DNA of 64,000 nucleotides. It comes from Escherichia coli. GTDB taxonomy: Bacteria; Pseudomonadota; Gammaproteobacteria; Enterobacterales; Enterobacteriaceae. Each line of letters starts with the position of its first letter. The first letter of the stretch is position 1. The position numbers and the translations under genes are program-made. The stretch lies in NCBI RefSeq assembly GCF_002854065.1, contig NZ_CP024147.1; one strand, 5' to 3'. The notes below the pieces were generated by a model. The model made no database searches, had not been told where the DNA came from, and saw only the letters and a list, made by a program, of their open reading frames with translations. Shown here piece after piece: positions 28,957 to 29,332 of the stretch.

Positions 28957-29038
28957 CTTTTCACCAAAAAGTAGTCAAATTCACCACGCCCTGCGCACCG
29001 TCGCGGGGCGTTTTGCTGTTAAATCAATAGATTATTTT

Positions 29039-29054
29039 TGGCATGATTCTTGTA
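29039..29054 (+). promoter_or_regulatory. sigma54 (-24/-12) promoter of pspG
   Basis: TGGCATGATTCTTGTA matches TGGCACG-N4-TTGCA consensus (GG and G(C/T) spaced correctly) about 36 bp upstream of pspG ATG; pspG is a known PspF/sigma54-dependent gene. Confidence 0.7.
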
Positions 29055-29089
29055 ATGCCTGCAAGAGATTTCATATTTGGGAGAGCATC

Positions 29090-29332
29090 ATGCTGGAACT
29101 ACTTTTTGTGATTGGCTTTTTTGTCATGTTGATGGTCACCGGCGTTTCGTTGCTGGGCATTATCGCCGCGCTGGTTGTGGCGACGGCCATTATGTTCCTC
29201 GGCGGTATGCTGGCATTGATGATTAAGTTGCTGCCGTGGTTACTCCTGGCGATTGCGGTGGTGTGGGTTATTAAGGCGATTAAAGCACCAAAAGTGCCGA
29301 AATATCAGCGTTATGACCGCTGGCGTTACTAA
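29090..29332 (+). CDS. pspG: phage shock protein G
   Basis: 80-aa ORF MLELLFVIGFFVMLMVTGVSLLGIIAALVVATAIMFLGG... within track ORF 28880..29332. Confidence 0.9.
   Translation: MLELLFVIGFFVMLMVTGVSLLGIIAALVVATAIMFLGGMLALMIKLLPWLLLAIAVVWVIKAIKAPKVPKYQRYDRWRY

Follow-up and report, generated by a model that had tools for sequence, protein, structure and literature searches.

The element at 29038-29054 of the 64,000-nucleotide stretch of Escherichia coli DNA analyzed here (the window) is almost certainly the enhancer-dependent sigma-54 promoter of pspG on the E. coli chromosome. The pspG sigma-54 promoter is already known, and a first-pass annotation of the window, which had read such a promoter upstream of a PspF-dependent pspG, interpreted it correctly. 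The elements themselves, their order, spacing and conservation were observed in the present analysis, while sigma-54 occupancy, rpoN dependence and PspF binding were taken from the literature. The features of the region are collected in Table 1.

Table 1. Features of the dusA-pspG region of the window, in order of position.
Feature	Position	Strand	Remarks
dusA CDS, tRNA dihydrouridine synthase A	27919..28956	+	RefSeq annotation of 100%-identical strain and ORF list; TAA 28954-28956
Upstream conserved enhancer arm TTTTCACCAAAA	28958..28969	+	consensus TTTCRCYAAAA
PspF UAS core TAGTCAAATTCACCA	28972..28986	+	quasi-palindrome TRGTS-N5-SACYA, centred about -86 from predicted +1
dusA intrinsic terminator (simplest reading)	28986..29015	+	terminator scan; 10-bp G+C-rich stem, 6-nt loop, T-rich tail
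IHF core AATCAATAGATTA (consensus WATCAANNNNTTR)	29022..29034	+	perfect consensus match; -43 to -31 from predicted +1
Sigma-54 promoter TTGGCATGATTCTTGTA	29038..29054	+	identical to ChIP-seq site OS40; -24 GG 29040-41, -12 GT 29052-53
Predicted +1	29065	+	19 bp after motif centre, 25 nt before ATG; rule from Bonocora et al. 2015 Table 1
Shine-Dalgarno GGGAGAG	29079..29085	+	4 nt before ATG; conserved in alignment
pspG CDS, 80 aa + stop, inner-membrane phage-shock effector	29090..29332	+	RefSeq, Pfam PF09583

The Sigma-54 Element Upstream of pspG

The 16-mer TGGCATGATTCTTGTA at 29039-29054 on the plus strand reads TGGCAT-GATTC-TTGTA, with the GG and the GT 10 bp apart, and this GG-N10-G(C/T) spacing is the canonical one for sigma-54; the -24 GG and -12 G(C/T) architecture that had been assigned to it before was confirmed. 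Its 3' end lies 36 nt before the pspG ATG (29090), on the same strand and inside the 133-bp dusA-pspG spacer. Comparison with the published pspG promoter showed that the 17-mer TTGGCATGATTCTTGTA is site OS40 as printed in Bonocora et al. 2015. The -12 dinucleotide at pspG is GT, as against GC in the consensus.

The pattern TGGCAYN5TTGYW has a single match in the 64-kb window, which is TGGCATGATTCTTGTA; counting both strands, chance alone would give 0.45 matches in 64 kb, and at least one match was obtained in 37 of 100 shuffles. A sigma-54 PSSM made from the 26 intergenic E. coli ChIP-seq motifs printed in Bonocora et al. 2015, with pspG excluded, ranked the pspG element first of 127,968 window positions, and its score was attained in 98 of 200 random 64-kb sequences, or in 169 of 200 with pspA also left out. 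As a bare motif, the element therefore does not stand out from chance in 64 kb. What makes the pspG motif exceptional is its position upstream of pspG, together with its conservation in all 80 loci described below; scaled from the whole-window expectation of TGGCAYN5TTGYW, about 4e-4 matches are expected on the plus strand of the 133-bp spacer. The next-best hits of the 26-site matrix, with 13.1-13.6 bits, were located at 20659-20675 (minus strand), 37692-37708 (minus strand) and 61846-61862 (plus strand); their sequences are CTGGCAAATGAGATGCA, CTGGCGCGTAAGCTGCA and ATGGCGAAACTGTTGCA, and they look intragenic by position.

Published data on this site are extensive. A sigma-54 ChIP-seq peak 15-fold above threshold was reported at OS40, which is flagged as experimentally confirmed in EcoCyc and has a predicted start 25 nt upstream of pspG, and expression of rpoN in a delta-rpoN strain raised pspG RNA from 14 to 109 (Bonocora et al. 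2015 and its supplement, PMC4591121). In Salmonella, a 39-fold ChIP-chip peak was found at the pspG promoter TGGCATGATTTTTGTAAG (Samuels et al. 2013, PMC3844500). RpoN holoenzyme binds the dusA/pspG spacer in vitro, with a gSELEX value of 54% (Shimada et al. 2021, PMC8743547). Moreover, pspG is about 20-fold inducible, and deletion of its promoter region raised basal pspA expression (Mehta et al. 2013, PMC3709507); the pspG promoter deletion is described in the supplement of that paper. A pspG promoter probe has also been used with PspF(1-275), and pspA and pspG were reported to agree in their -24/-12 elements and in the +1 nucleotide (Zhang et al. 2015, PMC4641871). The original description, to which all of these papers refer, is that of Lloyd et al. 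2004 (J Biol Chem 279:55707). These ChIP peaks and the rpoN-dependent RNA, as well as the published binding of PspF to one UAS, back the earlier reading of a sigma-54 promoter and a PspF-dependent gene.

The Gene, Its Leader and Its Start Site

The product encoded from 29090 was assigned to Pfam PF09583 (Phageshock_PspG) with E = 3.4e-25 and a score of 88.6 bits (gathering cut-off 25), the match extending over model positions 1-64 of 64. The reading of a 150-aa ORF at 28880-29332 as PspG with an N-terminal extension was considered and rejected: this ORF covers the end of dusA in a different frame and then crosses the UAS, the terminator and the promoter, while position 1 of the Pfam model aligns to the Met at 29090 and a conserved Shine-Dalgarno precedes the ATG there. 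By coordinate mapping, the predicted +1 corresponds to position 4262815 of MG1655 (U00096.3). Among the entries examined in the supplements of Kim 2012, Ettwiller 2016 and Yan 2018, none is for pspG or for positions 426083x/426084x and 426281x/426282x. The indirect lines of evidence all favour a start near 29065.

A 901-bp probe around the pspG promoter has a match in 5,425 of the 5,426 complete E. coli genomes; in strain PapRG-06-5, where the identity is 100%, RefSeq annotates dusA, pspG and qorA. The window is not from K-12, its best match being PapRG-06-5, and its pspG promoter occupies the same locus as that of K-12 pspG (yjbO) (Lloyd et al. 2004; OS40, Bonocora et al. 2015). The dusA-pspG spacer equals that of MG1655 in the UAS, terminator, IHF core, -24/-12 element and Shine-Dalgarno, and the sole difference is a T at 29060 in the window versus an A in K-12 MG1655, which falls at predicted position -5, within the stretch that melts when the open complex forms.

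Downstream of the gene, the sRNA PspH (b4758 in MG1655) lies at 29389-29499 on the plus strand, 100% identical to K-12 and overlapping the pspG 3' UTR. PspH has been described to sponge the sRNA Spf (Melamed et al. 2016, PMC5145812). A bidirectional terminator at 29468-29490, which also serves the convergent qorA, marks its end. PspH may be transcribed from a promoter of its own, and it gave no match to an Rfam family.

Conservation across Enterobacterales

A PspG scan of species-representative genomes yielded 80 loci from Escherichia, Citrobacter, Salmonella, Enterobacter, Klebsiella, Raoultella, Kluyvera, Leclercia and other genera, out to Yersinia, Rahnella, Biostraticola and Brenneria. The sigma-54 motif is present upstream of pspG in all of these Enterobacterales loci (80/80). 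Among the 79 distinct orthologous upstream sequences, 78 carry TGGCA(C/T) and 74 carry TTGTA, and the 16-mer takes 23 distinct forms, with the internal N4 varying freely. Since the -12 GT is kept in 74 of the 79 distinct regions, it is a conserved feature rather than a degenerate one.

In a MAFFT alignment of the 75 Enterobacteriaceae sequences, identity is 95% or more in the GG, CA, G and TTGTAAT columns, whereas it stays below 70% in the columns of the leader, of the IHF N4 and of the hairpin loop, which serve as an internal neutral control; the flanks also vary. Across the loci examined, the order of enhancer, dusA terminator, IHF core and -24/-12 element is the same from Escherichia to Yersinia, Rahnella and Brenneria, and their spacing is fixed within Enterobacteriaceae.

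Some leaders are extended by repeat-element insertions. Salmonella enterica subsp. arizonae (L015) and diarizonae (L032) have a REP-like palindrome of about 34 nt in the pspG leader, with the promoter at -85, and Yersinia vastinensis (L077, 1200-1500) has an insertion of about 150 nt, ERIC-like by eye, with the promoter at -207. The upstream module of UAS, hairpin, IHF core and promoter is intact in all three.

The PspF Enhancer

The first-pass annotation had pointed to PspF upstream activating sequences and an IHF site as features to look for upstream of the promoter, and candidates for both are present. A UAS-like element is located 53-81 bp upstream of the motif, at fixed spacing across orthologues. 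The whole enhancer stretch, TTTTCACCAAAA-AG-TAGTCAAATTCACCA (28958-28986), follows directly after the dusA stop; relative to the predicted +1, the UAS core spans -93 to -79 and the extra arm -107 to -96. Among the 75 Enterobacteriaceae sequences, the UAS core columns are 85-100% conserved, and in 74 of them the start of the UAS is placed 67-68 bp upstream of TGGCA. In Brenneria, the UAS is a perfect palindrome, TTAGTC-N5-GACTAA.

A UAS PSSM was made from the 15-mers of the pspG orthologues only and run across a 3.5-kb piece of the MG1655 psp locus (6,974 positions). Its top two positions, TGATGAAATTCGCCA and TAGTGTAATTCGCTA, both lie in the pspF-pspA spacer, 20 bp apart (L002 1913-27 and 1933-47), and are taken to be the two published pspA UAS. 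Published work holds that PspF binds the UAS of pspA and pspG, with two PspF UAS in the pspA regulatory region and one at pspG (Mehta et al. 2013). On the window, the same PSSM gave 25.1 for the pspG site versus 15.5 for the next best, a comparison that is circular here as the matrix is pspG-derived. When a degenerate pattern was derived solely from the two UAS of pspA, with two mismatches allowed, it hit 28973-28987 but was unspecific (4 hits versus 3.1 expected), and the cross-species PSSM test was used instead for this reason. The hand-written UAS pattern AGTNNNAATTCNCYAMC, which is out of register, found no match.

In addition to the UAS core, the non-coding arm TTTCRCYAAAA is 88-100% conserved per column in the 75 Enterobacteriaceae sequences. 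It repeats the right arm of the UAS, TTCRCYA, exactly 20 bp upstream, and 20 bp is also the spacing of the two pspA sites; the arm probably belongs to PspF. One full UAS plus one half-site at pspG, which makes three arms phased at 10 bp against four at pspA, fits the published count of one UAS at pspG versus two at pspA. It might further be proposed that the pspG enhancer works as a three-arm array (CACCA-N5-TAGTC-N5-CACCA), the four-arm pspA array minus one, which directly adjoins the dusA terminator on its upstream side and couples dusA transcription or termination to PspF occupancy, or in which a PspF roadblock aids dusA termination. This proposal is unlikely to hold, and the literature examined makes no mention of dusA-PspF coupling or of such a roadblock. 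If the three-arm reading were true, every dusA transcript would cross a PspF-occupied enhancer.

The Probable dusA Terminator and the IHF Site

A hairpin that is absent from the first-pass annotation is placed between the UAS and the IHF site. It folds in all 75 Enterobacteriaceae loci (72 distinct sequences), with a mean dG of -17.9 kcal/mol versus -7.0 kcal/mol for shuffles, and compensatory changes of stem pairs occur at 28992 (TG/CG/TA/GC), 28995 (AT/GC/TA/CG) and 28996. The simplest reading of this hairpin is an intrinsic terminator of dusA. On that reading, the 3' untranslated region of dusA would contain the enhancer, the promoter would be situated downstream of the terminator, and dusA transcripts would run through the enhancer DNA. 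A promoter scan of 28700-29600 found no sigma-70-like -35/-10 pair on the plus strand and, therefore, with the terminator in place, pspG should be insulated from dusA read-through; the terminator is the probable insulator.

Downstream of the hairpin, the perfect IHF core lies 5 bp upstream of the sigma-54 motif, closer than in many IHF-assisted promoters, and is conserved at fixed spacing. The IHF consensus alone is weak evidence, since WATCAANNNNTTR has 9 matches in the window versus 2.7 expected. The CAA-N4-TTA core is conserved, however. In Enterobacteriaceae, 17-18 bp separate its start from TGGCA downstream, and in Rahnella, Biostraticola and Brenneria this distance is 27-28 bp, greater by one helical turn. 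At pspG itself, IHF dependence was reportedly shown, and the start site is said to have been mapped by primer extension, by Lloyd et al. in 2004. IHF dependence of PspF action has also been described at pspA (Mehta et al. 2013).

Comparison with pspA and Other Sigma-54 Promoters

The pspA promoter shares with pspG the activator PspF, the unusual -12 TTGTA and the -24 TGGCA (TTGGCACGCAAATTGTA), and the -12 GT is common to pspG and pspA in both E. coli and Salmonella. Just upstream of its -24, pspA has an IHF-like core, TAAATCAA, in a place equivalent to that of AATCAATAGATTA at pspG, and the UAS arms of both promoters have the form TRGTS-N5-SRCYA, 10 bp apart. The enhancers differ in number and location: at pspA there are two full UAS (four arms), whose centres lie 74 and 94 bp upstream of the -24 GG, and induction reaches about 100-fold, whereas pspG carries one full UAS and an extra arm (three arms in all), with the centre 61 bp upstream of the GG and an induction of about 20-fold. 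As well, the pspA enhancer overlaps the divergent pspF promoter, while the pspG enhancer stands at the 3' end of dusA, before the dusA terminator. Canonical sigma-54 promoters of the glnAp2 type (TGGCAC-N5-TTGCW) resemble pspG in having GG and G(C/T) 10 bp apart and in using a distant AAA+ activator with IHF-assisted DNA looping, but pspG deviates from their consensus by its -12 GT in place of GC.

Proposed Mechanism and Alternative Explanations

Taken together with the published evidence, the arrangement suggests that pspG is activated in the standard enhancer-dependent way, with the following course of events. RNA polymerase carrying sigma-54 would bind the -24 GG/-12 GT element (29038-29054) in a closed complex that does not open alone. 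PspF oligomers would bind the UAS after the dusA stop (core 28972-28986), probably aided by the arm at 28958-28969, and a bend introduced by IHF at 29022-29034 (about -37) would allow PspF to contact sigma-54. ATP hydrolysis by PspF would then open the promoter, and transcription would begin near 29065, giving a 25-nt leader. Without stress, PspA keeps PspF inactive, and membrane stress frees it. The dusA terminator between enhancer and promoter would block read-through, so that pspG output should depend mainly on PspF.

Other explanations of the element were weighed. That it matches by chance, or is a site where sigma-54 parks without giving rise to a transcript, is extremely improbable. The motif statistics would allow a chance match, with about half or more of random 64-kb sequences scoring as high and 0.45 pattern matches expected, and parking would fit the observation that many of the 135 E. 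coli sigma-54 ChIP-seq sites are apparently inactive (Bonocora et al. 2015); however, all 80 loci carry the motif, a UAS and an IHF core are conserved along with it at fixed distances, pspG RNA is rpoN-dependent, and the site is EcoCyc-confirmed. The chance match was thus rejected on position and conservation, not on motif statistics. That most pspG transcription reads through from dusA or starts at a sigma-70 promoter, with the sigma-54 element playing a minor part, is very improbable as well. The co-orientation of dusA, which ends 133 bp upstream, and the basal expression of pspG without stress speak for this alternative, but a strong, conserved intrinsic terminator separates dusA from the promoter, the scanned region lacks a sigma-70-like plus-strand -35/-10 pair, and a PspF-dependent induction of about 20-fold has been reported.

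Compatible with the PspF-driven sigma-54 promoter, a second enhancer-binding protein such as NtrC could also act on it, although this is quite unlikely. By eye, the arm TTCACCAAAA within 28958-28969 is similar to the half-site consensus of NtrC, TGCACCA, but the right half of the palindrome is poorly matched. A gSELEX peak of NtrC (58%) was reported at the dusA/pspG spacer (Shimada et al. 2021), and yet binding in gSELEX is not activation; in the published view, pspA and pspG are the sole targets of PspF, and the induction of pspG goes along with the psp response.

Other Features of the Window

Rfam matches above the gathering score include the Hfq-binding sRNA sraL at 44178-44318 and STnc430 at 1864-2013, both on the minus strand, and three plus-strand matches to the REP-derived naRNA4 (1727-1798, 11399-11469 and 63648-63718). 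A gene with a SopA-family annotation is found between ubiC and malM in the best-matching strain (L084 13440-15020) and, by coordinate mapping, at about 13550-15130 on the plus strand of the window, while espX5, a T3SS effector-like pentapeptide-repeat gene, is located between actP and yjcE. These two genes look accessory in an otherwise core region.

Significance

The value of the result is mainly that of an internal control: the present analysis indicates that a real sigma-54 promoter can be recognized from raw sequence and that the annotation of the window as dusA-pspG-qorA is sound. The mildly new aspects are the three-arm enhancer, the conserved order of enhancer, terminator, IHF site and promoter, and the conserved -12 GT, and they leave the understanding of the system unchanged. 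As the only PspF target outside the psp operon, pspG belongs to textbook phage-shock biology.
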